Shown here: piece after piece, positions 2,967 through 33,058 of the stretch
Position numbering within the stretch: the first letter of the stretch is position 1
How the letters are laid out: each line of letters begins with the position of its first letter
From: Alphaproteobacteria bacterium
GTDB taxonomy: Bacteria > Pseudomonadota > Alphaproteobacteria > SMXP01
Direction: 5' to 3'
Assembly (NCBI GenBank): GCA_021774915.1
Contig: JAJFIO010000033.1
Span: forward strand, 1-51,996
Length of the DNA: 51,996 nucleotides
The notes under the pieces: model-generated
Databases searched by the model: none
What the model saw: the letters and a program-made list of their open reading frames with translations, nothing else
Told to the model about the DNA's origin: nothing
Program-made: the position numbers and the translations under genes

Positions 2967-3737
2967 TCATTCCACAATAAAATAAGAACCGTAGGGCAAG
3001 TACTGTGTTCTGCGCAATCTGACGGAATTGATTCCGAAGACTTCATTTAATGCGAGAGTTTCTCCTGGAAAAGCTTGATGCACAAGTTCGTCAAAGGCGA
3101 CGATACTGCCCTTTGTCAGGCGATCTGAGATCTTGCTTAAGACGTCTCTGGTTGGTTCGTAAAGGTCCATATCGAATACAGCCAGCGCGATTATTGCCTG
3201 AGGATTCTGTTCGAGCCAAGCGTCTATACTGGTGCTTGCATCACCTTTTACGAGTTCAAAGTTTTGTATTCTGTCAAACCCGCAAAGAGCCTCATGCGCA
3301 CTGAGAACGTTGTGGATAGTCTTTTCTATATCCTGAATCGTATTAAAGTCACCGGCCACGGGAATCTCGCCGTCTTCGTTCGTCACGCTGGGGAACCCAT
3401 CAAACGTGTCAAATCCAATAATCTTACGTGTATAATTTTGTGGCTCCAGTAATCCACGCAAGTTAATGAATGTGGCTAAAGACGTTCCCCAGTGTACGCC
3501 AAACTCCATGATATACCCTGGAGTATCGATAATTTGGGAATAAAGGTGATGAAAATGGAGAAGTTTACCGATGGCGTAGCGTTTTTGGAACAAACCAAGC
3601 TGATTGCTCCAGAAGAATCCAAAACTATCCAGATTATTTTGTAATGTTGATTTTAACAATTGATCATGATGAATGTGCTCAGGATCTTGCGCCGTAATTT
3701 CTCCGGTTTTCAGCTTACGGAACTTTTGTTCGGGCAT
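2967..3737 (-). CDS. TylF/MycF-family SAM-dependent O-methyltransferase
   Basis: Motifs EFGVHWGTS (SAM glycine loop), FDTFDGFP and FDMDLYEPTRDVL...GSIVAFDE match the macrocin-O-methyltransferase pattern. The gene is AT-rich. Confidence 0.7.
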   Translation of the reverse strand: MPEQKFRKLKTGEITAQDPEHIHHDQLLKSTLQNNLDSFGFFWSNQLGLFQKRYAIGKLLHFHHLYSQIIDTPGYIMEFGVHWGTSLATFINLRGLLEPQNYTRKIIGFDTFDGFPSVTNEDGEIPVAGDFNTIQDIEKTIHNVLSAHEALCGFDRIQNFELVKGDASTSIDAWLEQNPQAIIALAVFDMDLYEPTRDVLSKISDRLTKGSIVAFDELVHQAFPGETLALNEVFGINSVRLRRTQYLPYGSYFIVE

Positions 3738-3803
3738 AGCTAATAAACCTCCTAAAAATTTTGTAATCCCTGATGCTTATCGACAAACATCATTAGTGAA
3801 GAA

Positions 3804-4502
3804 TTACGTTGTTTTAAGCTTCACATAGGTTACGTAAGAATAGAAATTTCTCTGAGAAAAATAAGGTTCTTGCGGCGTGATATTAAGGCCGTTCATAGGA
3901 TATTGATGTCTAAAATGCCTTCCATCATACAGGGGTGGAAAAATTTCATAATCCTCAATGAATTCGGTGACAATGCTCCAGTCGTCTGCGTTCTCCCTAT
4001 GGTTTTCGAAGGTTTTGTGGGAGTACTTGAACGGAACATTGTCGTCGAAGATCAGATGCTTGAAGCCCTTTTGTTTTGCCTGAAGAAGCCTTGGAAATTT
4101 ATCTTGGTGATCATCAAAGAATGCGACATGAGAATCAATTTCTTCCGGTGGCACCTGTATGCCAAGAACACTGAAATCCTGATATGTATAGTGGGATTTT
4201 ACGGTTCGATATTCTGGTTGAAAATGTTTGGGGTCGAGAAATTGCCGCGACGCTAGAATAGGATCGGAAGTGAGAATTTCAGCCTCTGGCAGTGCTTGTT
4301 CTACAACCCATGTTGAAAATCCACGCCATGTACCGACTTCGATGACAACTTTGGCATTTAATCTCTGCAGGAAGTAGTAAAGTGCGAGACTCCCATTGAT
4401 GTTGAGTCCATTTGTATTTTCAAAAGGTCGATCGCCCCATACTTCCAGGAAAGTCTGGGCGGCCTGGCTCGCTTCAATGAGAGTAATCGTGTTCTCTTTC
4501 AT
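3804..4502 (-). CDS. Class I SAM-dependent methyltransferase (CmcI-like), tentative
   Basis: VIEVGTWRGFSTWVV is a glycine-loop-like motif, followed by acidic FFDDHQD and IFDDN. There is no closer recognisable family signature. Confidence 0.45.
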   Translation of the reverse strand: MKENTITLIEASQAAQTFLEVWGDRPFENTNGLNINGSLALYYFLQRLNAKVVIEVGTWRGFSTWVVEQALPEAEILTSDPILASRQFLDPKHFQPEYRTVKSHYTYQDFSVLGIQVPPEEIDSHVAFFDDHQDKFPRLLQAKQKGFKHLIFDDNVPFKYSHKTFENHRENADDWSIVTEFIEDYEIFPPLYDGRHFRHQYPMNGLNITPQEPYFSQRNFYSYVTYVKLKTT

Positions 4503-4711
4503 GACTTACTGTCTTTCCAAAGCGTTAACTAAGTATCAGTCTATGGGACCTTCGTTAATTGCTTCTTACGAACCGATGGGCCTTCATATTGTGAGTTTGC
4601 CAAAGTCTTTAAAGCCTTGGGAATCAATAAGCTTAACGCAATGTTTACCACGATGGCACAGAATTGCGGCAGGTTCGATACGATAGTTCACCCAGTTTTT
4701 GGATTCCGTTT

Positions 4712-6229
4712 ATGGACAATGCTAAATATTTGGACTTCCTGTTTGATAAAGATGTGGCAACAAACAAGGACAGGCTTGAATGGTTTGATGGGCGAGTGCA
4801 ACAACCTCTCAGTCTGGACCACGCCATAAAATGGATCGATGTTCTTAATCTTCATGGTACGGACTATGCGATATCTTTGGCAAAAGAGCTGAACCAAGGC
4901 GGCAATATCTGCGGAGCAATCGAAATACTAAAACTTTTTGCTTGCACTAAGTTAAGCTGTCGCGAATTTTCCACAGCCACTGACGCGGTAAACCAGATTC
5001 ATATCATGTGTCTGCAGGCTGGCGTGTCTCCAAGAGATTTTTTCCTTGATGATTATCTCAATATGCACCTGCCGAAATTCTGTCCGGAGCCAAGCTCCCT
5101 TGACCCGGAAGAATCGCGTCAAGGGCCAATAAAGGTAGGCTATCTCGTCCCTTTATGCTTGGATCCAAAGAGCACGATACCTCCCATACCTGGCGAACTG
5201 GCCCGTCGCCATTCCTCAGATATCGTAGCTACATTGTTTTTCCCTTACTCGCGGAAATTAGTGGAGGAGAGAAATCCAGATTTGGTGAAATATCTTGAAA
5301 CCCTGTTGCCCAGGGACTCACTTGTTTTTCATAAGAAATATTATCAAGACGAGTGGGACAGGGTTCATGATTTTGCAGAAATTATTCGCAGTTATGACCT
5401 TGACGCCTTAATCACAATGACGGCGCTGTATGCAAGCTCGTTAATCAGCTACATGCGGCCGGCACCGAAGATATATGCCATCGACGTAGGGCATCCACAC
5501 TGGTATTCGCACCGGTTTATGGACCGGGTTTTTTCCGGACACCCGCACTTCCTGCTGGAGGCACAAACGAACAGCATTTATGCACCGCTTGGATTCACTG
5601 CCGGTTCGCGCACAAAGGCGGTCCACACATCTGCGGAAAAACTTGAAAAAATTGAATTTATCAAGCACGCATCGATGGTCCTGTTTTCGTCCGGTTCAGG
5701 CGATAAATTCATCGGTGATGACTTCTGGAATGTTGTAAATCATGTCCTTGAATCGACAGACGTCAATTGGATCTTTCTCGGATCCCAGCCCGATTACGTT
5801 ATGAACAGGGTTGACTCTCGTTATCACCCTCTGGTCCGGGCGTTTCCCCGAAGCAAGAACTTCAGCCACTTTTTAAACCATGCAGACCTGTATGTAGACA
5901 GTTACCCCATAGGAGGCGGGTACAGCGTGCTGGAAGCCTTTGAGAAAGGCGTGCCTTGCGCTCTCTTTCATCATGACTTCACTCAGCCTTTCAATAAGCG
6001 GGAGAACTATGCACCCTATTCTCACATCTCGAAGGATCCATCCTTTGCGGCGGTGCCCAACAAAGAGGCATATCAGAATCACATTATTGACTTGATCAAG
6101 TACGAGCCATGTCGGCTGAAACAAATCGAAATGCAAAACGAAGCGGCGCCCAAAGTATTGGAAAGTGATCATATGATTGCGGCTATTGAACAGGCGCTCC
6201 AGTGCGACTGTAGGACATGTTATGACTGA
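4712..6229 (+). CDS. GT41/SPINDLY-like glycosyltransferase with helical N-terminal domain; start uncertain (TTG 4664 or ATG 4712)
   Basis: The C-terminal half (VLFSSGSGDKF...LYVDSYPIGGGYSVLEAFEKGVPC) follows the bacterial SPINDLY/O-GlcNAc-transferase-like pattern (FxSxxxxxK ... DTFPYxGGTTxxEALWMGVP). Its stop overlaps the next gene's start (ATGACTGA). Confidence 0.5.
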   Translation: MDNAKYLDFLFDKDVATNKDRLEWFDGRVQQPLSLDHAIKWIDVLNLHGTDYAISLAKELNQGGNICGAIEILKLFACTKLSCREFSTATDAVNQIHIMCLQAGVSPRDFFLDDYLNMHLPKFCPEPSSLDPEESRQGPIKVGYLVPLCLDPKSTIPPIPGELARRHSSDIVATLFFPYSRKLVEERNPDLVKYLETLLPRDSLVFHKKYYQDEWDRVHDFAEIIRSYDLDALITMTALYASSLISYMRPAPKIYAIDVGHPHWYSHRFMDRVFSGHPHFLLEAQTNSIYAPLGFTAGSRTKAVHTSAEKLEKIEFIKHASMVLFSSGSGDKFIGDDFWNVVNHVLESTDVNWIFLGSQPDYVMNRVDSRYHPLVRAFPRSKNFSHFLNHADLYVDSYPIGGGYSVLEAFEKGVPCALFHHDFTQPFNKRENYAPYSHISKDPSFAAVPNKEAYQNHIIDLIKYEPCRLKQIEMQNEAAPKVLESDHMIAAIEQALQCDCRTCYD

Positions 6230-11031: not shown

Positions 11032-11182
11032 CGTGTGTACCCTTATTTATTGAGTTAAATTCTGATATGCACGTTTATAGGGATTTTTACCAAGAGAACG
11101 CCTGTGCTCTCTCTGACGCAAGCTTTCCGTTACGTCAAATCAAAGGTTGATTTTCTCCTCGAGCCCCCTAATCCTGCACCTT

Positions 11183-14100
11183 ATGCACGATCATCAATTT
11201 CATCTGCTCAAAACCAAGCGATTTCTGCCGCTCTTTATTACCCAAACTCTGGGGGCATTCAATGACAATGCGTTTAAGAACGCGTTGGTCATGTTGGTGA
11301 CCTACCAGACCGCAATCCGGGCTGGCATGGACAGCCGCCTTATCGTTACCGCAGCGGCCGGCGTCTTCATCCTTCCCTTTTTCCTATTTTCGGCGTTCGC
11401 GGGACAATTGGCGGATAAGTATGAAAAAGCCATGCTGATCCGGCGGATCAAGCTTTTTGAAATTGTCCTCATGATTCTGGCCATCATCGGCTTCATGCTG
11501 CAGAACATCTACTGGCTGATGAGCGTGCTTTTTCTTCTGGGTGCGCAATCAGCTTTGTTCGGGCCGTTGAAATATGGAATTTTACCTCAGCATCTTCATA
11601 AAGATGAACTGGTGGGTGGTAATGCGCTGATTGAAGCCAGCACTTTCATGGCGATACTGCTGGGGACGATCATCAGCGGATTGCTGGTGTTGACGGAACA
11701 TGGAGTTATTCTGATCTCCGGCCTGATCATGGTGTCGGCGCTCACGGGCTACACGGCAAGCCGTTCTATTCCGCGTGCAGCGGCGGCAGACAGGTCGCTC
11801 AAACTGAACCTCAACATTGTTTCTGAAACGCTGAGCATCATTCGGCACGCGGCCAGTCAGAAAACAGTTTTTCTCTCTATCTTAGGTATCTCGTGGTTTT
11901 GGCTTGTCGGCGCGGTTTATCTGGCCCAGTTCCCTGTCTATGTCCGGGATGCGTTCCGGGCTGACGAACAGGTTGTGACTCTGTTCCTGGCGGTTTTTTC
12001 CATCGGCATCGGCATCGGGTCTTTGTTGTGCACACGATTGCTCAAAGGGGAGGTCTCGGCAAAGTATGTGCCTTTGGGCGCGCTCGGTATGTCGCTCTTT
12101 GGGATTGATCTCTATTTTGCAGGGGGGGCGGGAGCGTTGGTGATTGAGGGCGCTCCTCTTGCCAATGCCGCCGAATTTCTGTCCCATGCCGGACATTGGC
12201 GTGTGCTTATTGATCTGCTTGGTGTTGCCGTGTGTGGCGGGATCTACATCGTACCCCTTTATACTCTCATCCAGGTCCGATGCGACCCGCAGCATTTGTC
12301 GCGCACGATAGCGAGTAATAATGTGCTCAATGCGTTCTTTATGGTCGCGGCGGCCATATTGAGCATGACCCTTTTGAAGCTTGATTGGGGTATCTCCCAG
12401 ATTTACCTGAGCGTTGCCGTGGCCAACGGTTTTGTTGCGGCTCTTGTCTGCCAGCTCCTACCACAAGAAGTGATCAAGGTACTGGTGCGGCGCCTGTTCC
12501 GGCTGCTCTACCGTGTCGAAATCATCGGCATGGAAAATTACAAAAGCGCTGGCGAACGGGCAGTCATCATCATCAACCACACATCGTTTTTAGATGGAGC
12601 TTTGGTTGCCGCTTTTCTGCCCGATACGCCCACTTTTGCCGTGAACACAGGGATCACCAAAAAATGGTGGGCTAAAATAGCGTTTATGGCATTTGATGTT
12701 CTGCCACTTGATCCGACCAACCCCATGAGTGTGAAAAGTCTGGTGCGAGCGGTGCAGAATGGCAAGCGCTGCGTGATTTTTCCCGAAGGGCGTATCACGG
12801 TCACCGGCGCTCTCATGAAGGTTTATGAGGGGCCGGGTGCAATTGCGGACATCACGAATGCCTCACTTGTTCCCATCCGGATTGAAGGGGCGCAATACAC
12901 ACCGTTCTCACGGCTCAAGGGCAAGGTGCGCACGCGGTGGTTTCCCAAAATTACGATCACGATTCTTGAGCCTCGGAAAATTGATCTTCCGAAAAGGATT
13001 AAGGGGCGCGAGCGCCGTCAGTTGATCAGCGCCGAGCTCTATCAGCTTATGTGCGACATGCTGTTTGAATCCGCATCAATCGATCAGACGCTGTTTGCCG
13101 CATTGCTGGATATGCGTACGATCCATGGCGGGAAACATGAGGTTCTGGAAGACACGGACTTTTCTCCTATGAGTTATAACCGGCTCATTCAGGCAAGTTT
13201 TGCTCTGGGCAGAGTCCTCACCCGCCATACGGGACGCGGAGATTATGTTGGGATTCTCCTGCCCAATGTTATTGGCACTGTGGTTACTTTTTTCGGACTT
13301 CATGCTTTCGGGCGCGTTCCGGCGATGCTGAATTACTCAACCGGCGTTAGCAATATGGTGGCGGCTTGCGATGTGGCTAAGATCAAAACGGTTTTCACAT
13401 CACGTAAATTTATAGAGGCAGGCGGATTTCAGGATGTGGCCATCGCATTGGCGGGACAAGTCAAACTTGTGTATCTGGAGGATTTGCGCAGTGAAGTTGG
13501 GCTTGCCGATAAGCTGTTTGCGTTGGCGGCAGGGCGCTTTTCTCGTTTCGTCTATTCACGGGTGGTGCACAGGCCTCGTGCGGAAGACCCTGCGGTGGTG
13601 CTTTTTACATCAGGTTCTGAGGGTGTGCCCAAGGGGGTGGTGCTGAGCCATCGCAACATTCACGCCAACCGGACTCAGGTCAGTGCACGTATTGACTTTA
13701 ATCCTTCTGACAAGATCTTTAGCACCTTGCCGATATTCCATTGCTTTGGACTTACAGGGGGGTTGATGCTGCCTCTGTTTGCCGGGATCAAAGCATTTCT
13801 TTATCCCTCTCCCCTGCATTACAAAACCATTCCGGAGCTGGTCTATGAGCAGAACGCGACAATTCTATTTGCGACGGATACGTTTTTGGCGGGCTATGCG
13901 CGCGCGGCCCATGCTTATGATTTTTACTCACTACGCTATGTATTAGCGGGAGCGGAAAAACTGAAGCAAGAAACACGCACGATGTGGGCGGATAAGTTCG
14001 GTCTCCGAATTCTCGAAGCCTATGGCGCCACAGAAGCGTCGCCGGGCCTGTGTATCAATACGCCCATGCAATACAAGGCCGGCACAGTGGGTCAACTGCT

Positions 14101-14710
14101 GCCCGGCATTCGCCATCGGCTCGTGTCTGTGCCGGGGATTGATACGGGAGGGCGTTTGGAAGTGGCGGGGCCCAATATCATGAGCGGATATTTGCGGGCC
14201 GAAACACCCGGTCAAATCGAACCGACGGGCGACTGGTATGATACGGGCGATATTGTCGATATCGATGCGGAAGGATTTGTGACTATTATTGGGCGGGTTA
14301 AACGCTTCGCAAAAATTGCCGGTGAGATGATCTCCCTCACCGCAGTGGAAACGCATGTCGCCAAACTCTGGCCGCAACACGGCCATGCCGTGGTCGCTAT
14401 TCCCGATCAGAGAAAGGGCGAACAGATTGTCCTGGTTACGGAACATGGGGCTGCGGATCGGGCGGCGATTTCCGCCAGCGCGCGTGTGCATGGATTGTCC
14501 GAACTCATGGTACCCAAACTGATCGTGCCGATTGAGAGCATACCCATCATGGGAACCGGCAAGACCGACTATGTGACCCTCTTGTCTCTAGTGATTGCGC
14601 GGGTGGTTAAAGTAGAAGATGCAGCAGACGCCCTTGAGGTAGAGCAGGTGATTCAGCCTGATGAGGGCAATGAAAAGAGCTTTGAAGAACAGGCCATCGA
14701 GAACCCATGA
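11183..14710 (+). CDS. aas: Fused lysophospholipid transporter (MFS, LplT-like) / PlsC-type acyltransferase / acyl-ACP synthetase (Aas-like)
   Basis: The N-terminal part has about 12 TM segments. The acyltransferase motif is NHTSFLDG...FPEGRIT. The adenylation motifs are FTSGSEGVPKGVVLSHRN, YGATE, TGD and GKTD. A TTG at 11147 is an alternative start. Confidence 0.8.
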   Translation: MHDHQFHLLKTKRFLPLFITQTLGAFNDNAFKNALVMLVTYQTAIRAGMDSRLIVTAAAGVFILPFFLFSAFAGQLADKYEKAMLIRRIKLFEIVLMILAIIGFMLQNIYWLMSVLFLLGAQSALFGPLKYGILPQHLHKDELVGGNALIEASTFMAILLGTIISGLLVLTEHGVILISGLIMVSALTGYTASRSIPRAAAADRSLKLNLNIVSETLSIIRHAASQKTVFLSILGISWFWLVGAVYLAQFPVYVRDAFRADEQVVTLFLAVFSIGIGIGSLLCTRLLKGEVSAKYVPLGALGMSLFGIDLYFAGGAGALVIEGAPLANAAEFLSHAGHWRVLIDLLGVAVCGGIYIVPLYTLIQVRCDPQHLSRTIASNNVLNAFFMVAAAILSMTLLKLDWGISQIYLSVAVANGFVAALVCQLLPQEVIKVLVRRLFRLLYRVEIIGMENYKSAGERAVIIINHTSFLDGALVAAFLPDTPTFAVNTGITKKWWAKIAFMAFDVLPLDPTNPMSVKSLVRAVQNGKRCVIFPEGRITVTGALMKVYEGPGAIADITNASLVPIRIEGAQYTPFSRLKGKVRTRWFPKITITILEPRKIDLPKRIKGRERRQLISAELYQLMCDMLFESASIDQTLFAALLDMRTIHGGKHEVLEDTDFSPMSYNRLIQASFALGRVLTRHTGRGDYVGILLPNVIGTVVTFFGLHAFGRVPAMLNYSTGVSNMVAACDVAKIKTVFTSRKFIEAGGFQDVAIALAGQVKLVYLEDLRSEVGLADKLFALAAGRFSRFVYSRVVHRPRAEDPAVVLFTSGSEGVPKGVVLSHRNIHANRTQVSARIDFNPSDKIFSTLPIFHCFGLTGGLMLPLFAGIKAFLYPSPLHYKTIPELVYEQNATILFATDTFLAGYARAAHAYDFYSLRYVLAGAEKLKQETRTMWADKFGLRILEAYGATEASPGLCINTPMQYKAGTVGQLLPGIRHRLVSVPGIDTGGRLEVAGPNIMSGYLRAETPGQIEPTGDWYDTGDIVDIDAEGFVTIIGRVKRFAKIAGEMISLTAVETHVAKLWPQHGHAVVAIPDQRKGEQIVLVTEHGAADRAAISASARVHGLSELMVPKLIVPIESIPIMGTGKTDYVTLLSLVIARVVKVEDAADALEVEQVIQPDEGNEKSFEEQAIENP

Positions 14711-14889: not shown

Positions 14890-15112
14890 AATAATCTTGA
14901 GACTTTATAGCGCAGGGGGCAAAGCCCCTGCAAGCACGGCTCGGGCGTACTTCTTCACTCCAGAGCCGAAGCCAGCGCGTAGGGTGCACCTTGTTGGCAG
15001 GTTAAAACCTCAAAAGTCCTTGCGTGAAGGGATAAAACGAGGCATTAAGTGCCCGCGATAGAGGCCGAGCGCTGTGTCGCCATTTCTTAGGTCACGATTG
15101 TTGTTGATCTTT

Positions 15113-15186
15113 TGGGGCGTAGCCAAGTGGTAAGGCAGTGGGTTTTGATCCCATGATCGCAGGTTCGATCCCTGCCGCCCCAACCA
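15113..15186 (+). tRNA. tRNA-Gln (anticodon UUG)
   Basis: Acceptor TGGGGCG/CGCCCCA, anticodon loop TTTTGAT, T arm GCAGG-TTCGATC-CCTGC, and an encoded CCA. Confidence 0.93.
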
Positions 15187-15245
15187 AGCACTAAATTTCC
15201 CTCTCAAAAATGTGATTCCATCCGGGGAAGCTTTTGGAGTTAAGA

Positions 15246-15346
15246 AACTTTACAGATATTTTCAGGTAGATTGATTTTCCAAAATCACTGTGGATTTTGT
15301 GAACTGTAAAGTTGATATCCGGGATTGCTAAAATCACATATGTGAT
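15246..15346. repeat. Cluster of inverted repeats downstream of tRNA-Gln
   Basis: A perfect 10-bp inverted repeat: AACTTTACAG (15246-15255) and CTGTAAAGTT (15304-15313). It encloses GATTTT-cc-AAAATC-actgtg-GATTTT. A perfect 14-bp palindrome ATCACATATGTGAT lies at 15333-15346. Confidence 0.5.
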
Positions 15347-15936
15347 CTGTGTGCAGATTTAACTAAAGTCAATTGGGGGCTAATTTTTTACGGGGAAGGG
15401 CGAATGGCCAAGAAGGGATCGGATCTGCTGTGGTGGTGCGGTGAACTGATCTCTATGGCAAGTGCGATGTTGGTTTATCTCATCGTCTTAACCAAGAATG
15501 CAATCAATACCATGGTATCTATTGATGTGAAGGCGCTCGTGATATATGGATCATATCGGGCAGACGGCTTGGAGGGGCCGCTTGATTCTTGATATACCTG
15601 TCCCAAGGGGCATTTGTGTCGGGATCAGACCAATGAGTAGATTGAGTGGGGGAGGAAACACAAAACCGCCACAAATGAATGGAAACCTGAGCATCAAGGC
15701 GATTCTGGTGCTGACAAGGGCCATGGGAGGCGGTTGTTTTAAGACAGCATTGTTGACATAAAATGTTGCCCAAGCAAACATAATCCCGCCTCCATAAGGA
15801 GGCCTTGGCGCACAAATTGCAGCGTTGTTTGATAAGCTTAAGGGGCGCTTAAAGCGTAAATAGAATAGGTAAAAGTTTTGGTAAATTCGCGGATAGCAGA
15901 AAATAAAAATAAACTTATAAGTGCAATTCCGCCTGC

Positions 15937-15980
15937 AAACTCTCTTCTAGAGAGTTTTATGTTTCTTCGTGATGAAGAAA
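15937..15980 (+). promoter_or_regulatory. Two adjacent short hairpins/palindromes about 190 nt upstream of the TonB2-type operon
   Basis: AAACTCTC-ttcta-GAGAGTTT (15937-15957) and TTTCTTC-gtgat-GAAGAAA (15962-15980). The flanks are AT-rich. The function (operator, terminator or none) is unknown. Confidence 0.3.
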
Positions 15981-16172
15981 TAGGGTGTTGGGGAAGAGTT
16001 TGGTGACGTGCACATCCATCATTTCTGGCCGCGTCGCGGCAACCGTCTTTCAGGCGGATTTCTATTTAACTGTTGGCCACGCGGACATTGTGTCCAAAGC
16101 CAGTCAAGGCGGCAAAGCTTGCGCCGTTTCATCTGGTCTGTGGTCTGTAAAGCTCAAAAAAAGGGTTATCTC

Positions 16173-27748: not shown

Positions 27749-28060
27749 TCAGCCTGAAAGTTCATCCCACCAAGTGGAGAGGTCGTCCATCCAGATAGTT
27801 CCCAGCTCCTGCGCACAATCACGTGTAGAGTATTGAACGGTAAGAGCGCGAAACAGTCCCTCCAAAGTCGGGTTCTCCTGGTTGGTGGATGAACTGCCGC
27901 CGCCTAATATCTCGCTGACGCTGGCCATGGTGTCATCGCTTTTCTGTTTTGCCAGTATTCGGCAAGGGTCTGCTGTATCGTAAAGGAGAATAGAAATCCC
28001 CGCGGCAAGGCCGATGAGGATCACGGCATAAAATACAAAATTGCGTATCAAGTTATACAT
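27749..28060 (-). CDS. Hypothetical small membrane-anchored protein
   Basis: 103 aa with one N-terminal TM segment (FVFYAVILIGLAAGISILLY). No recognisable family. Confidence 0.4.
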   Translation of the reverse strand: MYNLIRNFVFYAVILIGLAAGISILLYDTADPCRILAKQKSDDTMASVSEILGGGSSSTNQENPTLEGLFRALTVQYSTRDCAQELGTIWMDDLSTWWDELSG

Positions 28061-28132: not shown

Positions 28133-28498
28133 TTAAAGAGGTCCGTTCGTATGCCAACGGTCTTCACCACCAAAAATTTCCGTATCACGGCCTGCTGTTC
28201 CACCACACGATGTGTATCCTTCATTCCACCCGGCTTTATAGGATTCATCTTGTTCGTACAGCTCGTCATTGCGTTTTACCGTGTCTTTGAATCCAGCAAC
28301 GCGCCCATTGCCGGTGGCGCAGCCATCATTATACCCCGCGCGAAATGTAGGAGCCTCACGAAGGGCGGGATCAATCTGAGTACTGCATCCACTTAAAAAC
28401 AAAAACCCCAATAAACCAAGGAAAAGAAAACCTTTTGAACTCAACCACTGAACGATCACGTCGCCCCTCCTCTTAAAAATCCCCATAAACATGAACAT
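28133..28498 (-). CDS. Hypothetical lipoprotein
   Basis: Lipobox FLSGC. The mature part has duplicated G(Y/W)N(D/E)G motifs (AGYNDGCATG, AGWNEGYTSCGG). Confidence 0.5.
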   Translation of the reverse strand: MFMFMGIFKRRGDVIVQWLSSKGFLFLGLLGFLFLSGCSTQIDPALREAPTFRAGYNDGCATGNGRVAGFKDTVKRNDELYEQDESYKAGWNEGYTSCGGTAGRDTEIFGGEDRWHTNGPL

Positions 28499-28704
28499 TG
28501 ATACCCCACAAGACCCATCTCAGCAGAGTATAGGGGTAAGCGTCCAACGCCAATAGGGTTAAGGATATAATTTGATAGAAATTTGGCGAAATTCTATGCT
28601 TTATATCTAGCTTAATCTTAAATGCCAACTGGTCTTATGACCTCAGAGCCTGAGAAATTCGGGCCGAATGGTGAGCATTGCCGCGCTGCCAAACTAACTA
28701 TGAA

Positions 28705-29949
28705 ATGGCCATGGGTGAGGAAAAACTGAACAAAGCGCATCATACACCTCCTGAGTTGAGACAAACCGAGACTCGTCCGGTGGCTGAAATTATCCAGTTG
28801 GAAACGGCTGAGACGATGAATCACGAGTTGCTTGCTGATGAGCTGCAATCGACATTTGCTTTGGCGGAAGCCCTTGCCTGCACCAAGGTGGAGCATCCGC
28901 GTGTTGTCCTTGTCAAGCGGTTGTCCGATCTTCTGCTGTTGTCGACCGATCAGGTTATGCCCTCCGAACGCGCGCTGATCGACGAGATTTTGGTGCGACT
29001 GATTGTCCATGTGGATGTTACTCTCAGAAAGCGGATTGCGCGCCGGATCTCGGGCATGACGGAACCTCCTGGAGCGCTGCTGGCAAAGTTAGCCCGGGAT
29101 GAAATAATTGTCGCCGAATCCATATTAGAAAACAATCTGGCTATTTCAGACTCCGACCTTATCGATATTGTGCGTAAGGGCAATGGTGAGCACAGACGTG
29201 TTATCGCTTCGCGTAAAGCTATCTCAAGTTCAGTGGCGGACGCTCTTGTGGAAATGTCTGAGGTGTCAGTCCTGGAAACCCTTCTGCGTAATGAGTGCGT
29301 ACATTTTTCTCTATCCGGAATGGAAAAGCTCGCACAACGTAGCCGGTATGTTCCTTCGTTGCAGCCATTAATTGTTGAGCGTGCGGCTTTGCATTCTACA
29401 CTGGCCTACACCATATTCTGGTGGTTACCTTCCGATCTGCGTTTGCGGGTATTATTTCGTTTCTCCGTTTCACGGAGAGTCTTGCAGCAGGCCATCGCCG
29501 ATGCCGTTGAGCAGGGGGAATTTGACCTTCGCTCGAATGACCCTCTGGAGCAGGAGGCGCTGCACTTTATTCTAGGAGGGCAGTATTCCGCACGGGGCCA
29601 GGCGGCTCATGTGTTTGAACACCTGAAAACCGGGAAAACTGATGAATTTTTATCCAGTTTTTCTATTGCTGCTGGAATTTCGCGGCAGACTGTTGTTAAA
29701 ATTTTACGTGATCCAGGCGGAGAAGCCCTGGCGGTTTTATGTAAGGCCGTGTCTCTAAAACGTCAGGAATTTGTGATGTTGGCGAGACTGTTGGAAAAAG
29801 CGAAACAAGCTACGGACCTCACCGAGGAGCGGGCCGAGTGTCTCGAATTGGTGTTTGATTCTCTTCCGACGGACAGTGCGGATTTGATATTGCGTCATTG
29901 GGACAAGCCTCGATTGCAGGGGCTCGCAGCGCCGACGAGCAATGATTAG
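28705..29949 (+). CDS. DUF2336-like protein (paralog 1); start uncertain (TTG 28678, ATG 28705 or 28711)
   Basis: The helical-repeat protein with core ERALIDEILVRLIVHVDVTLRKRIARRIS...FWWLPSDLR matches my recollection of the alphaproteobacterial DUF2336 family. It is clearly paralogous to the next gene. Confidence 0.6.
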   Translation: MAMGEEKLNKAHHTPPELRQTETRPVAEIIQLETAETMNHELLADELQSTFALAEALACTKVEHPRVVLVKRLSDLLLLSTDQVMPSERALIDEILVRLIVHVDVTLRKRIARRISGMTEPPGALLAKLARDEIIVAESILENNLAISDSDLIDIVRKGNGEHRRVIASRKAISSSVADALVEMSEVSVLETLLRNECVHFSLSGMEKLAQRSRYVPSLQPLIVERAALHSTLAYTIFWWLPSDLRLRVLFRFSVSRRVLQQAIADAVEQGEFDLRSNDPLEQEALHFILGGQYSARGQAAHVFEHLKTGKTDEFLSSFSIAAGISRQTVVKILRDPGGEALAVLCKAVSLKRQEFVMLARLLEKAKQATDLTEERAECLELVFDSLPTDSADLILRHWDKPRLQGLAAPTSND

Positions 29950-30153: not shown

Positions 30154-31263
30154 ATGACGCATCGTGAGGGGCAAAGCGGTCCGGTTGCAGAGCAGGAACT
30201 AATGCGCTTAAGGGCGCAGATTTCTCATGGCGATGCGGCGGCGAGACAGGCTCTGTTCGAAAAAATATCGGATCTTTTGCTCAGCGAATCCCATCAGGCT
30301 TCTGAAAGCGAGAACACCCTGATGGATGAGATATTGGTCGAGCTGATCGACCATATTGAGTTTGCTATCCGCAAGAAAGTAGCGGCGCGCTTAGCGGAAC
30401 AGGAGACCGCGCCGCACAAACTATTAAATTTTCTTATGCGTGATGATATTCGTATTGCGCGACCGATCCTGCTGAACGGTGTAGCGCCCACGGATGAGGA
30501 TCTTATTGGTGTGATCAGCGATACCACAAGTGATCACCGCCAGTCTATTGCCGGAAGAAAACAGGTTTCTGCAATTATCAGCGATGCTTTGGTTGGGTCC
30601 GGTGAGATTCAGGTCATTGTCACATTACTGGACAATCCCGGTGCGCATCTCTCTCCGGAGGCCACACAATCACTTGTGAACAGTTCACAAAACGTTGAAA
30701 CCATTCGAGCGCCTTTGCTGGCTCGTGATGAACTGAGTCCCTATCAGGCCCATTCCATGTTCTGGTGGGTGTCTTCAGCGCTGAGGGGCTCTATTCTGAA
30801 AAACTTCCAGATTGATGACGAAACTCTCGATCAAGCTTTGCAAGCGTCTGTAAATGAAGGCGTTAAGGAGGCGCTGGCCGATCAACATCTGGCATCAATG
30901 CTGAAAACAGTTGCGGCGGGTGGTGCACGCGCCTTGTCTGGTCTGATGGCCTATCTGAAAGGCAGCAGCAGCGCAAAACTGAATGCGAATTTTGCACATC
31001 TGATGGGTATCAGCGAGGGAACGGCAAACAAAATACTGAGTGATGCGGCCGGAGATGCCCTGGCGGTGTGCTGCAAGGCCATTGAGGCGGACCGGCAGCA
31101 ATTCACGCGTCTCTTTTTACTCATTGATTACAAGCGGTATGGGCAGAACAGGCCGATCGGCCATCTGGCGAATGTATCTGCATCATATGATGCGATCAGC
31201 AGCCAGGACGCCCGTAAGACGCTCTGCCTGTGGGAAGCACAGGAACTGGCTAAGGCTGCTTAA
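30154..31263 (+). CDS. DUF2336-like protein (paralog 2)
   Basis: ENTLMDEILVELIDHIEFAIRKKVAARLA...FWWVSSALR is collinear with the upstream paralog over most of its length. Confidence 0.6.
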   Translation: MTHREGQSGPVAEQELMRLRAQISHGDAAARQALFEKISDLLLSESHQASESENTLMDEILVELIDHIEFAIRKKVAARLAEQETAPHKLLNFLMRDDIRIARPILLNGVAPTDEDLIGVISDTTSDHRQSIAGRKQVSAIISDALVGSGEIQVIVTLLDNPGAHLSPEATQSLVNSSQNVETIRAPLLARDELSPYQAHSMFWWVSSALRGSILKNFQIDDETLDQALQASVNEGVKEALADQHLASMLKTVAAGGARALSGLMAYLKGSSSAKLNANFAHLMGISEGTANKILSDAAGDALAVCCKAIEADRQQFTRLFLLIDYKRYGQNRPIGHLANVSASYDAISSQDARKTLCLWEAQELAKAA

Positions 31264-31398: not shown

Positions 31399-31410
31399 TT
31401 CAAATTTGAA
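31399..31410. promoter_or_regulatory. Perfect 12-bp palindrome TTCAAATTTGAA in the leader upstream of the ParF-like gene
   Basis: Read directly from the sequence. It lies in the AT-rich part of the 450-nt intergenic region. Confidence 0.3.
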
Positions 31411-31713
31411 TCTTCCTTTTTACAGGGCATTAAGACCTCCAATTTATTGTGGATAGTGACGTCGGCTGTGGACTGCGTACCGTGCTGCGGCTGGCGTCTC
31501 TTCGAAACGGCAAACCGCTGGAGACGGCGGGACGCAAAGCCACCGGCCCTAATTTTACATTAAATTTTAGGGCAGCGGAGCTACCGAAAGGAGACGTCAT
31601 TATGCACAATGCATATCTCTCACCTCCTAAAGCACGGACGAATATTTTTACTAGCCGCGATATGATTTGCGATGATGTCTGATGTGGGTTGAGTAATTGA
31701 GGGGTGAGTTCCA

Positions 31714-32454
31714 ATGCTACCGTCTATGCGCGTGATTGTATTCGCATCGCAAAAAGGTGGATCCGGAAAGACGACGCTGTCTGGCCATATGGCTGTCCAG
31801 GCTGAACTTGCGGGCGCCGGACCGATTGCATTGATCGATACGGATCCTCAAGGGTCTTTGTCTAAGTGGTGGAATGTGCGCGAAAGCGAGTCACCTTACT
31901 TTATCCAGTCTGTTTTCTCCAATTTGTTTCAGGATCTCGATCTGGCGCGCCGCGAAGGCTTTCGGTATGTCTTCATCGACACGCCTCCGGCCGTAACGCG
32001 GGCAATTTCAGAAGTCGTGAATTTTGCCGATATCGTCATCATTCCCACTCGGCCCAGTCCGCATGATCTTCGCGCGGTAGGCCCGACGGTGGATATCGTT
32101 GAATCTAAACATAAGCAGCTTGTTTTTGTCGTCAATGACGCCACACCGCGTGCACGGATTACGTCTGAAGCTGCCGTGGCTCTCTCGCAACATGGAACCG
32201 TGGCGCCGACGATTGTCCACAACCGTGTCGATTATGCCGGCAGCATGATCGATGGGCGCACCGTCATGGAAACAAATCCAGGCGGCCGTTCTGCGAAGGA
32301 GATGAAAGACCTGTGGAAATATATTCAGGAACGTTTGTATCGAATGGAAACTGTTCACGCGGGCTGGCTGGATGAGGACGGTAAGAGCGCACTGGAAGCC
32401 AATACAAATGCATTAGGGCGTAGGGCGCCATCCTTCGGCCGACGATTGCAATAA
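31714..32454 (+). CDS. ParA/MinD-superfamily ATPase, small ParF/VirC1-like (type Ib) form
   Basis: Deviant Walker A SQKGGSGKTT, DTDPQGS, and Walker B-like VFIDTPP. There is no N-terminal HTH extension. Motif order is collinear with plasmid ParF as I recall it. Confidence 0.8.
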   Translation: MLPSMRVIVFASQKGGSGKTTLSGHMAVQAELAGAGPIALIDTDPQGSLSKWWNVRESESPYFIQSVFSNLFQDLDLARREGFRYVFIDTPPAVTRAISEVVNFADIVIIPTRPSPHDLRAVGPTVDIVESKHKQLVFVVNDATPRARITSEAAVALSQHGTVAPTIVHNRVDYAGSMIDGRTVMETNPGGRSAKEMKDLWKYIQERLYRMETVHAGWLDEDGKSALEANTNALGRRAPSFGRRLQ

Positions 32455-32473
32455 GGAAGGGCAGTAGGAAAAA

Positions 32474-33058
32474 ATGTCAAAAGGTTCGTATACATCTCTC
32501 ACGGCTGGTTTGCTGGCGCGCAAGGGTGAGGCTGTACCCGCGACGACATCGTTCAATGGCGAGAGTATCATTTCAGCGCATCCTATCAGACGCCCTTTGG
32601 CGTCGACTGCGGCATCACCCTCTGCTAGCGCATGGGCTAATACAGGATTTGTGCTGGCTCAGGCAGAAAACCAAGAGCCGCACCTGGATAATCCTGAAGC
32701 AGCGTCACAGAGCTCATCACAATCGGATCAAGATCACCATCCTGCTCATACGACATCTACAGTTGACAGTCATCCTGAGGATTCACAGAGCGAAGATAAT
32801 TGCGAGCCATGTGTGCCGCTTGCCTCTCTCGCCACGGGTGAGGATAGTTTGGGACGGCGCTCGTCAGTGACCTTCCGGCTTGATGCGACGCGCTATCTGT
32901 GTCTGAAGATGGCGGCCGCCAAACTCGCTCGAACCAATCAAGATATCCTGACCGACGCTCTGGATATGTATCTTAAATCTCTCGCCGATGATGCACTGGG
33001 AGACTGCACGTGTCTGCAGCAACTGATCAAAGGGGATCCGCATGTAAATCATTCTTGA
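32474..33058 (+). CDS. ParG-like partner candidate: disordered acidic/His/Ser-rich protein with C-terminal ribbon-helix-helix
   Basis: It starts 19 nt after the ATPase gene, with an AGGAA RBS. The N-terminal peptide is SLTAGLLARKGEAVPA, followed by about 100 aa of low complexity (SQSSSQSDQDHHPAHTTSTVDSHPEDSQSED). The C-terminal VTFRLDATRYLCLKMAAAKLARTNQDILTDALDMYL has a beta-alpha-alpha RHH pattern. Confidence 0.55.
   Translation: MSKGSYTSLTAGLLARKGEAVPATTSFNGESIISAHPIRRPLASTAASPSASAWANTGFVLAQAENQEPHLDNPEAASQSSSQSDQDHHPAHTTSTVDSHPEDSQSEDNCEPCVPLASLATGEDSLGRRSSVTFRLDATRYLCLKMAAAKLARTNQDILTDALDMYLKSLADDALGDCTCLQQLIKGDPHVNHS

Follow-up and report, generated by a model that had tools for sequence, protein, structure and literature searches.

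A chromosomal ParA-type ATPase and its predicted ribbon-helix-helix partner, probably a domesticated type Ib partition cassette, downstream of a c-di-GMP-I riboswitch aptamer in Alphaproteobacteria

We analysed a stretch of 51,996 nucleotides from an alphaproteobacterium (contig JAJFIO010000033.1 of assembly GCA_021774915.1, positions 1 to 51,996 of the forward strand; hereafter the window), in which two plus-strand open reading frames (ORFs) separated by 19 nt encode a ParA-type ATPase of 246 aa (31714..32454) and a partner protein of 194 aa (32474..33058), just as a first-pass annotation of the same DNA had described them. That annotation contained neither of two features reported here, a cyclic di-GMP (c-di-GMP) type I riboswitch aptamer (c-di-GMP-I, GEMM-I) in the leader at 31498..31595 on the plus strand and an FGRR motif ending the tail of the ATPase. 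The survey of homologous gene neighbourhoods that it had proposed was carried out by ORF clustering of 85 related loci (individual loci are given below by L numbers), and the partner gene lay directly 3' of the ATPase gene in 84 of them. Given this adjacency, the pairing of the two genes is far above chance.

The ATPase carries the deviant Walker A motif KGGSGKT at residues K14 to T20 (31753..31773, plus strand, read directly from the sequence), with K14 as the signature lysine, and this motif was invariant across 41 orthologs. ParF of plasmid TP228 was its top sequence match in the PDB (E 1e-16, about 29% identity), and the alignment covers residues 5-204, so that the protein has no N-terminal extension or helix-turn-helix (HTH) domain, in agreement with the first-pass description. 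The AlphaFold2 (AF2) model has a predicted template modelling (pTM) score of 0.78, and its seven best Foldseek matches were all ParF, with template modelling (TM) scores of 0.82-0.87. Pfam matches fell in the group of AAA_31, CbiA, VirC1 (33 bits) and MipZ, and the best NCBIfam model was NF041546, ‘ParA family partition ATPase’, with 164.4 bits against a cutoff of 180; the protein is homologous to NF041546 ParA_partition but falls outside the curated equivalog. It is a small, HTH-less type Ib ParA with a deviant Walker A motif. Of the features that characterise this type, the signature lysine, the HTH-less core of ParF fold and a downstream partner with a predicted ribbon-helix-helix (RHH) domain were found, while an iterated centromere acting in cis to stabilise its own replicon was not, there being no repeat array and the locus being chromosomal.

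The core that resembles plasmid ParA_partition proteins spans residues 1-215 and is followed by a tail (216-246) that is disordered in the AF2 model, with a predicted local distance difference test (pLDDT) score below 55 at the motif that ends it. This C-terminal short linear motif, NALGRRAPSFGRRLQ (32407..32451, plus strand), contains FGRR in the window; FG[RK]R was found within the last 12 aa of 82 of the 84 ATPase orthologs, whose tail consensus is NALGRxAPxFGRR, and it was missing from both plasmid ParAs in the tail alignment (n=2). Tail length varies from about 30 to about 130 aa among orthologs. The tails of about 130 aa belong to L003, L037, L049, L056, L068 and L073 (Maricaulis, Hyphomonadaceae, Roseibium), clades that are riboswitch-less, and carry a conserved Arg-rich block, ERRxSDxGPPxGQxDRR, ahead of the FGRR end.

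The partner matched no Pfam family at E<=0.1 and no NCBIfam model. Its alignments, AF2 model and Foldseek matches bear out the three-part architecture described in the first-pass annotation, namely an N-terminal peptide, a disordered linker and a C-terminal segment VTFRLDATRYLCLKMAAAKLARTNQDILTDALDMYL, to which a CxC motif can be added. The peptide spans L9-P22 (LTAGLLARKGEAVP; 32498..32539, plus strand), is made of invariant or near-invariant columns and is better conserved than any other part of the family, with the consensus [SA]-L-[TS]-A-G-L-L-A-R-K-G-x-A-x-P; even remote members, retrieved without a word index, keep it. We presume that it is the ParA-binding, ATPase-stimulating element. 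The linker of the window protein is Ser-rich, 104-109 aa long and acidic (net charge −11), as had been noted, and this acidity does not extend to the family: of 73 orthologs, 36 have a negative net charge and 33 a positive one, and the length ranged from 45 to 186 aa, with still shorter or much longer linkers (up to about 250 aa) in more distant members from the search of representatives. A conserved acidic linker was thereby ruled out, and since linker acidity varies among orthologs, the earlier idea of a condensate-forming arm is weakened.

The C-terminal domain at residues 130-175 (32861..32998, plus strand) is predicted to be an RHH fold, consisting of the beta strand SVTFRLD, a helix at 138-151 and a helix at 155-175. 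The AF2 model is confident only for residues 130-185, with pLDDT 91-97 over 130-175 and a short third helix after 175. Foldseek placed ParG on top (1p94, probability 0.98, E 0.21), followed by CopA(SO), PutA-RHH, TacA, AtaR, CopG and Arc, and a partner profile matched only RHH chains (E73, PutA) in the PDB. Because these three approaches agree, and because remote members as well as plasmid partners gave sub-threshold matches to Pfam RHH_10, we adopt the RHH assignment, which the first-pass annotation had proposed and for which it had asked for such a fold check. R135 in the beta strand, K145 and Q156 were invariant in the partner alignments. The ParG family profile PF09274 gave no match to the partner at E<=0.1, and the likeness to ParG lies at the level of the fold only. 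C-terminal to the domain stands the CxC motif C178-T-C180 (33005..33013, plus strand), present in 63 of 78 orthologous partners and in none of the plasmid partners examined.

A word-seeded search for the partner family gave 51 clusters, and their profile, run with HMMER against the full set of 1.84 billion representatives, gave 2270 matches, 989 of them at E<=1e-10; wherever the source names them, members are called ‘hypothetical protein’. Scanning one genome per species yielded 115 loci with a partner homolog, all of them alphaproteobacterial or in mis-binned metagenome-assembled genomes, and named host groups include Maricaulis, Marinicaulis, Hyphomonadaceae, Micropepsaceae, Parvularcula, Amphiplicatus, Rhodobiaceae, Roseibium, Novosphingobium and Sphingomonas. 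The relatives lie on contigs of 0.1-5.5 Mb, complete chromosomes among them, flanking synteny is kept across orders, and no real partner homolog occurs on the 72,556 plasmids of PLSDB, where a single weak match was confined to the RHH domain. ATPase orthologs are 65-85% identical, compared with 30-69% for the partner. Megabase-scale contigs, absence of the partner from PLSDB, kept synteny and the identity of ATPase orthologs together argue that the pair is chromosomally fixed and vertically inherited. The window itself fits the housekeeping chromosome described before: it holds two tRNAs, its large ORFs near the pair are metabolic or transport genes (a PHO4 phosphate transporter, an Mrp antiporter, a GMC oxidoreductase, a prolyl oligopeptidase), no rep, relaxase or transfer genes were found among the large ORFs examined, and the GC content around the pair is that of its neighbourhood.

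The ATPase nonetheless has close kin on plasmids. By tblastn, 2337 PLSDB plasmids encode a ParA 57-60% identical to it over residues 5-210, and in a neighbour-joining tree of limited sampling the chromosomal ATPases form one clade beside these plasmid ParAs. The phylogenetic placement that had been called for thus puts the protein beside plasmid ParAs; of the earlier grouping with ParF and VirC1, the type Ib assignment stands, with ParF the top match by sequence and by fold, and the close relationship does not, as both are distant and plasmid ParAs are nearest. The gene 3' of the related plasmid ParAs encodes a protein of 80-103 aa with the same peptide and RHH domain, and partner-like peptides were seen on plasmids of Xanthomonas, Acidiphilium, Deefgea, Pseudomonas and Methylomagnum. 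Alignment of the N-terminal peptides of chromosomal and plasmid partners with hhalign gave E values of 9.5e-5 and 7e-3. The Deefgea plasmid partner has the peptide MSKTASLTSGLVAKKGQAAPA and the RHH segment LTVKLDRERYEALKNAGIKLDKKSQEIFVEALDSWLKQ, and that of pXCV19 has ADLSGLVATKGAAAP and LNFRVSGDFRRRFRMFAAAHDMKLNELLRLVFEEY. The plasmid ParA_partition systems compared (pXCV19 of Xanthomonas, Deefgea piscis, and unnamed5 of Acidiphilium multivorum) share with the window pair the gene order and a short gap, the peptide (…SLTSGLVAKKGQAAPA… in the window pair, …SLTAGLLARKGEAVPA… on the plasmids) and the RHH domain (LTVKLDRERYEALK… and VTFRLDATRYLCLK…, respectively). By contrast, the window pair is chromosomal, is not beside rep genes and is riboswitch-controlled, its partner has 194 aa instead of 80-103 through a linker of about 100 aa and the C-terminal CxC extension, and its ATPase has the extra disordered tail ending in FGRR. 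Given that plasmid ParA partners have the same peptide and RHH domain, the earlier view of an unrelated orphan pair does not hold, and the pair is probably a domesticated plasmid type Ib partition cassette that would have gained the linker and CxC in the partner and the FGRR tail on the ATPase.

The riboswitch aptamer was identified by a match of Rfam RF03167 to 31500-31589, about 125 nt ahead of the ATPase start (score 65.1 bits, gathering cutoff 59, E 3.4e-13), and by a covariance model of our own (R1), built from 13 aptamer copies, which scored the window aptamer at 103 bits. With this model, 25 loci scored 70-103 bits, in every case immediately ahead of the ATPase gene; besides the window, they are two metagenome loci and 22 of the 80 species loci. 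Orthologous aptamers occur in L007, L008 and L001, the last as canonical RF01051 (59.1 against a cutoff of 35), and compensatory double changes were found in 5 of the 18 pairs across the 13 sequences. The window aptamer keeps GGC AAACC ... ACGCAAAGC and a GNRA tetraloop hairpin, and all 25 aptamers conform to GGCAAA… ACGCAAA(G/A)C … (A/G)C-CGA, including the bases that we take to be the ligand contacts (G20, A47 and C92 in Vc2 numbering). The RF03167 label stems from near-equal scores of two models of the same clan and not from a variant binding pocket; a GGC-variant ligand was ruled out, as the diagnostic base in ACGCGAAG is the canonical A in the window and L001, where the model has G. Because GGC-AAACC and ACGCAAA are kept and A stands at the variant position, we read these aptamers as canonical c-di-GMP sensors. 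The riboswitch loci are scattered over several subclades of the ATPase tree, the deep branch L058 among them, which suggests an old association with repeated loss; at the riboswitch-less loci no other Rfam element reached its gathering score. With c-di-GMP-I riboswitches of the Vc2 type the window shares the consensus, the ligand-contact bases and a P1 helix beside the expression platform, and it differs from those comparators in its alphaproteobacterial host, in the ParA-type ATPase and partner encoded downstream, and in a leader ORF, an anti-Shine-Dalgarno relay and a 5' hairpin. Our literature search found no report of a c-di-GMP riboswitch with ParA-type ATPase genes.

Two arrangements of the expression platform were found. 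In 16 of the 25 loci the 3' strand of P1, CGAA(A)GGAG, doubles as Shine-Dalgarno sequence, with the ATPase ATG within about 10 nt; the other form, seen in the window and eight relatives, has about 90-180 nt of spacer between aptamer and ATPase gene (window: about 110 nt). In the window a first Shine-Dalgarno GGAG (31590..31593, plus strand) is part of the extended P1 3' strand (CGAAAGGAGAC), which by duplex folding pairs with the 5' flank GGCGUCUCUUCG (dG −17.7, z −5), the extended helix being GGCGUCUC-UUCG / CGAA-AG-GAGACGUC. Eight nucleotides past this GGAG begins a putative leader ORF of 26 codons (MHNAYLSPPKARTNIFTSRDMICDDV; 31602..31682, plus strand), and comparable short ORFs occur in L007, L009, L001, L010 and L011. 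A read-through fusion of this ORF with the ATPase was rejected, the ATG at 31602 lying 112 nt from that at 31714 and in a different frame. Within the leader ORF a pyrimidine-rich anti-Shine-Dalgarno element, CTCTCACCTCC (31617..31627, plus strand), is complementary to the ribosome-binding region of the ATPase gene, GAGGGGTGAG (31699..31708, plus strand), and minimum free energy (MFE) folds pair the two in the window, L009, L007 and L011. In the MFE fold of L001 the ribosome-binding region is paired instead with another upstream segment, GUUCAC, and inspection of the sequences of L010 and L011 showed co-varying versions of the two elements. The putative leader ORF of the window carries an S-P-P motif (YLSPPKAR), and SPP or SPF recurs in the short ORFs of L007, L010 and L011; since the motif coincides with the anti-Shine-Dalgarno nucleotides, its conservation may be at the level of RNA rather than peptide. 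An inverted repeat of 18 nt (31446-31463 / 31593-31610, 89% complementary) brackets hairpin and aptamer and covers the ATG of the leader ORF, and an alternative long-range leader helix is possible. From the arrangement of these elements we infer that the riboswitch gates translation of the ATPase gene. The simplest reading is an OFF switch, in which P1 stabilised by c-di-GMP would hide the Shine-Dalgarno sequence and the system would be active in the low-c-di-GMP, motile state; in the long-leader form, the signal would be relayed via translation of the leader ORF and masking of the ATPase ribosome-binding site by the anti-Shine-Dalgarno element.

Upstream of the aptamer, an AT-rich region with conserved columns (31399..31441) is a candidate promoter or operator. 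It holds a perfect palindrome, TTCAAATTTGAA, at 31399-31410, unique in the window, and an invariant box, TTAAGACCTC, at 31431-31441; across 83 loci the hexamer AATTTG/CAAATT is enriched 8-10 times at −200 to −100. The sequence TTAA-N7-TTAA, which we take to be the CtrA-box consensus, shows an enrichment of about 60-fold in the region 200-300 nt ahead of the ATPase gene, chiefly at loci that lack the riboswitch: it occurs between about −190 and −340, for the most part close to −200, in L027, L033, L042, L045, L047, L060, L064, L066, L070, L071, L074 and L084-L086, and at −90 in L016. The window has only TTAAGACCTCC at 31431-31441 and a full box at 15838. TTAA-N7-TTAA might be a mark of cell-cycle control or an operator of the RHH protein. 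It sits just before a conserved hairpin, which in the window lies immediately 5' of the aptamer (31460..31496, plus strand). This hairpin, with the loop UGCGUA(UCUAGG), is found immediately 5' of the aptamer in long-leader loci and has no Rfam match. The hairpin is also present in 15 riboswitch-less loci (L026, L027, L032, L033, L045, L047, L060, L064, L066, L070, L071, L074 and L084-L086), where it precedes the ATPase start by about 140-180 nt (by about 280 nt in L033) and, in Marinicaulis-like ones, is followed by a T-tract. Its stem shows compensatory changes (GCGUCGG/CCGGCGC versus GCACUGG/CCGGUGC), and it may act as a terminator or attenuator or as a binding site for a protein.

The DUF2336 genes that the first-pass annotation had pointed to are indeed adjacent: the window has an SpbR-like DUF2336 gene directly upstream of the operon (30154..31263, plus strand; Pfam PF10098, E 8e-50) and a second PF10098 paralog ahead of it (28678..29949), and 40 of the 85 loci have such a gene as their immediate upstream neighbour on the same strand. 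SpbR of Caulobacter, a pole protein, binds PopZ and in excess upsets the interplay of ParA and PopZ, a description for which our literature search gave no match (SpbR with PopZ), the matches to DUF2336 being incidental only. The two window proteins scored 90 and 93 bits against a cutoff of 400 for NCBIfam SpbR (NF052659) and are not SpbR equivalogs.

Several known systems offer comparisons. TP228 ParF/ParG supplies the best solved-structure match of the ATPase and the top Foldseek match of the partner domain. The flexible N-terminal tail of ParG acts on ParF, and the tail of the present partner would act on its ATPase in the same way. The window pair differs from ParF/ParG in its identity of only about 29% to ParF, in giving no Pfam ParG match, in having no parH-like array and in being chromosomal. 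VirC1/VirC2 of the Agrobacterium Ti plasmid likewise pair a ParA-like ATPase with an RHH-type protein of about 200 aa, VirC2 having an RHH-type DNA-binding fold. However, the ATPase scored 32 against a cutoff of 313 for NCBIfam VirC1, there is no T-DNA, overdrive or type IV secretion context, and VirC2 is unrelated by sequence to the partner family. The window pair resembles McdA/McdB, PpfA and ParC systems in joining an orphan chromosomal ParA-type ATPase to a largely disordered partner with a charged N-terminal peptide. McdA matched the ATPase weakly and in part (E 3.5e-7), the partner has a predicted RHH fold, and the neighbourhood has no carboxysome or bacterial microcompartment (BMC) genes, which sets the pair apart from McdAB. 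CdbA of Myxococcus xanthus is an RHH nucleoid protein that binds c-di-GMP (PMC7156744) and so also ties an RHH protein to c-di-GMP and chromosome organisation; it was a weak Foldseek match of the partner. CdbA itself binds the second messenger, whereas the link here is an RNA aptamer, and it has no cognate ParA and is related to the partner only at the level of the RHH fold.

On balance we consider it probable that the pair is a domesticated, chromosomally fixed type Ib cassette, here under the control of a c-di-GMP riboswitch. By analogy with ParF/ParG and with the general ParA/MinD principle (PMC10241942), in which the ATPase is engaged by a charged, disordered N-terminus of its partner, ATP-bound ATPase dimers would coat the nucleoid, and RHH dimers of the partner would occupy a single specific site or a small number of them on the chromosome, for which the AT-rich stretch ahead of the operon is a possibility. 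The N-terminal peptide of the partner (R16/K17) would then dock on the ATPase dimer and trigger ATP hydrolysis, and a diffusion ratchet would move or hold the partner-DNA complex, together with anything tethered via the linker of about 100 aa or the FGRR tail. Several observations weigh against this. The FGRR tail, the long linker and CxC are without plasmid counterpart and would be left unexplained by a model of pure DNA positioning. The riboswitch is missing from 58 of 80 species loci, so that RNA-based c-di-GMP control does not define the family. MFE folding speaks for neither an ON nor an OFF logic, the direct-type duplex of P1 and Shine-Dalgarno sequence being short and no better than shuffled sequences. 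Finally, repeat finding, k-mer sharing among 77 loci and a palindrome search gave no iterated centromere-like array in or around the operon, and a DNA cargo is for this reason hypothetical. The FGRR tail, the long linker and CxC, along with the DUF2336 neighbour, suggest that the module has been re-purposed beyond simple DNA segregation.

One form of such re-purposing, which we put forward tentatively, is a second-messenger-gated organiser, that is, a partition motor made only in one c-di-GMP state, in which the RHH domain would be the chromosomal anchor and the FGRR tail, the linker or both would place a non-DNA cargo or polar factor, the best candidate being the DUF2336/SpbR-like neighbour; its hosts would be many Alphaproteobacteria, including several that are dimorphic and stalked. 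It is also conceivable, if somewhat doubtful, that the system positions a protein cargo in the manner of McdAB or PpfA, with the partner mainly as an adaptor whose linker or C-terminus binds a protein assembly (candidates being the DUF2336 protein or a polar hub), the FGRR tail docking on a landmark and the RHH domain serving only dimerisation or autoregulation. That DUF2336 genes precede the pair in 40 of 85 loci from both riboswitch-bearing and riboswitch-less clades, that ParA/MinD genes are often encoded beside their cargo (PMC10241942), that a conserved FGRR on a disordered tail is typical of docking motifs and that a centromere array was not found all speak for it. About half of the loci, including those of Maricaulis and Hyphomonadaceae, nevertheless keep the FGRR tail and the partner architecture with no DUF2336 neighbour, the DUF2336 genes lie outside the riboswitch-controlled unit, those of the window reach only about 90 bits of the 400 set for SpbR, linker composition is not conserved, and the invariant Arg of the beta strand argues for retained DNA binding.

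An improbable alternative is a pair of transcriptional regulators without a positioning role, in which the RHH protein represses its own and perhaps neighbouring promoters and the ATPase is a co-repressor, in the way of ParA/ParB autoregulation on plasmids. In its support, RHH proteins are classic repressors, as the Foldseek matches to CopG, Arc, PutA and antitoxins show, the operon is preceded by a conserved AT-rich palindrome and box, and type Ib plasmid partition systems autoregulate. Set against this are the stronger purifying selection on the ATPase (65-85% identity) than on the partner (30-69%), the complete Walker A motif with its signature lysine, and the fact that no part of the partner is better conserved than the presumed ATPase-stimulating peptide, which would be unexpected if the dynamics of hydrolysis were dispensable. 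The remaining explanation, an ordinary partition locus of a plasmid or chromid or the inert remnant of an integrated plasmid or integrative and conjugative element, has very little to recommend it. In its favour are the 57-60% identity of the ATPase core to plasmid ParAs and a partner built like those of plasmids; however, the window lacks rep, relaxase and transfer genes and does not deviate from its surroundings in GC content, the relatives lie on chromosomes of 0.1-5.5 Mb with synteny kept across orders, the partner has no real homolog in PLSDB, and both proteins are strongly conserved together with their lineage-specific additions. A plasmid or chromid locus was ruled out by the missing rep and relaxase genes, the megabase-scale chromosomes and the PLSDB result, in keeping with the position taken in the first-pass annotation.

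As for the wider neighbourhood, the pair is followed in the window by a gene for a CPBP/Rce1-like protease and by the Mrp antiporter operon, and Mrp genes lie downstream in about 20 of the 85 loci. The Mrp antiporter, the CPBP protease, a LON-domain protein and ExbD/TonB were considered as hints to a cargo and rejected as clade-specific synteny only. A role in anti-phage defence was rejected likewise, PADLOC giving no match, and no chemotaxis or BMC genes were found near the loci. Two small genes on the minus strand (28133-28498 and 27749-28060), divergent from the DUF2336 genes, had no Pfam match; they are syntenic in 36 and 17 of the 85 loci, respectively, and the former type is lipoprotein-like, with a signal of the form …LSGC…. 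Farther away, a plus-strand ORF of 1187 aa (11147-14710) fuses a major facilitator superfamily (MFS) transporter with acyltransferase and AMP-binding (acyl-activating) domains, an architecture resembling a lysophospholipid transporter joined to an Aas-type enzyme. GC content dips to 0.42-0.45 at 3000-5000 and 15000-16000 (window mean about 0.53), the second dip lying about 0.2 kb past a tRNA-Pro/tRNA-Gln pair, and these dips may represent islands or stretches of AT-rich intergenic DNA.

In bacteria, chromosomes, plasmids and protein organelles are placed mainly by ParA/MinD ATPases, many of which are orphans without known cargo or regulation. The type Ib ParA with an RHH partner is already known as a kind. 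What appears new, as far as our literature searches show, is the broad chromosomal family, a large and unnamed one whose partner falls into about 1000 clusters at 50% identity, each of them with a hypothetical-protein annotation, together with its FGRR, linker and CxC additions and its control by a c-di-GMP riboswitch. The canonical riboswitch before the operon is an apparently unreported link between second-messenger sensing by RNA and ParA-type positioning. Cultivable hosts exist in Maricaulis, Amphiplicatus, Roseibium and Novosphingobium, and the peptide, the tail and the aptamer are precise targets for mutation. If the tentative view of a second-messenger-gated organiser is true, this would be the first riboswitch-controlled ParA/MinD system, with a new class of cargo, and it would couple c-di-GMP-driven switching of cell cycle and lifestyle directly to ParA-based positioning.

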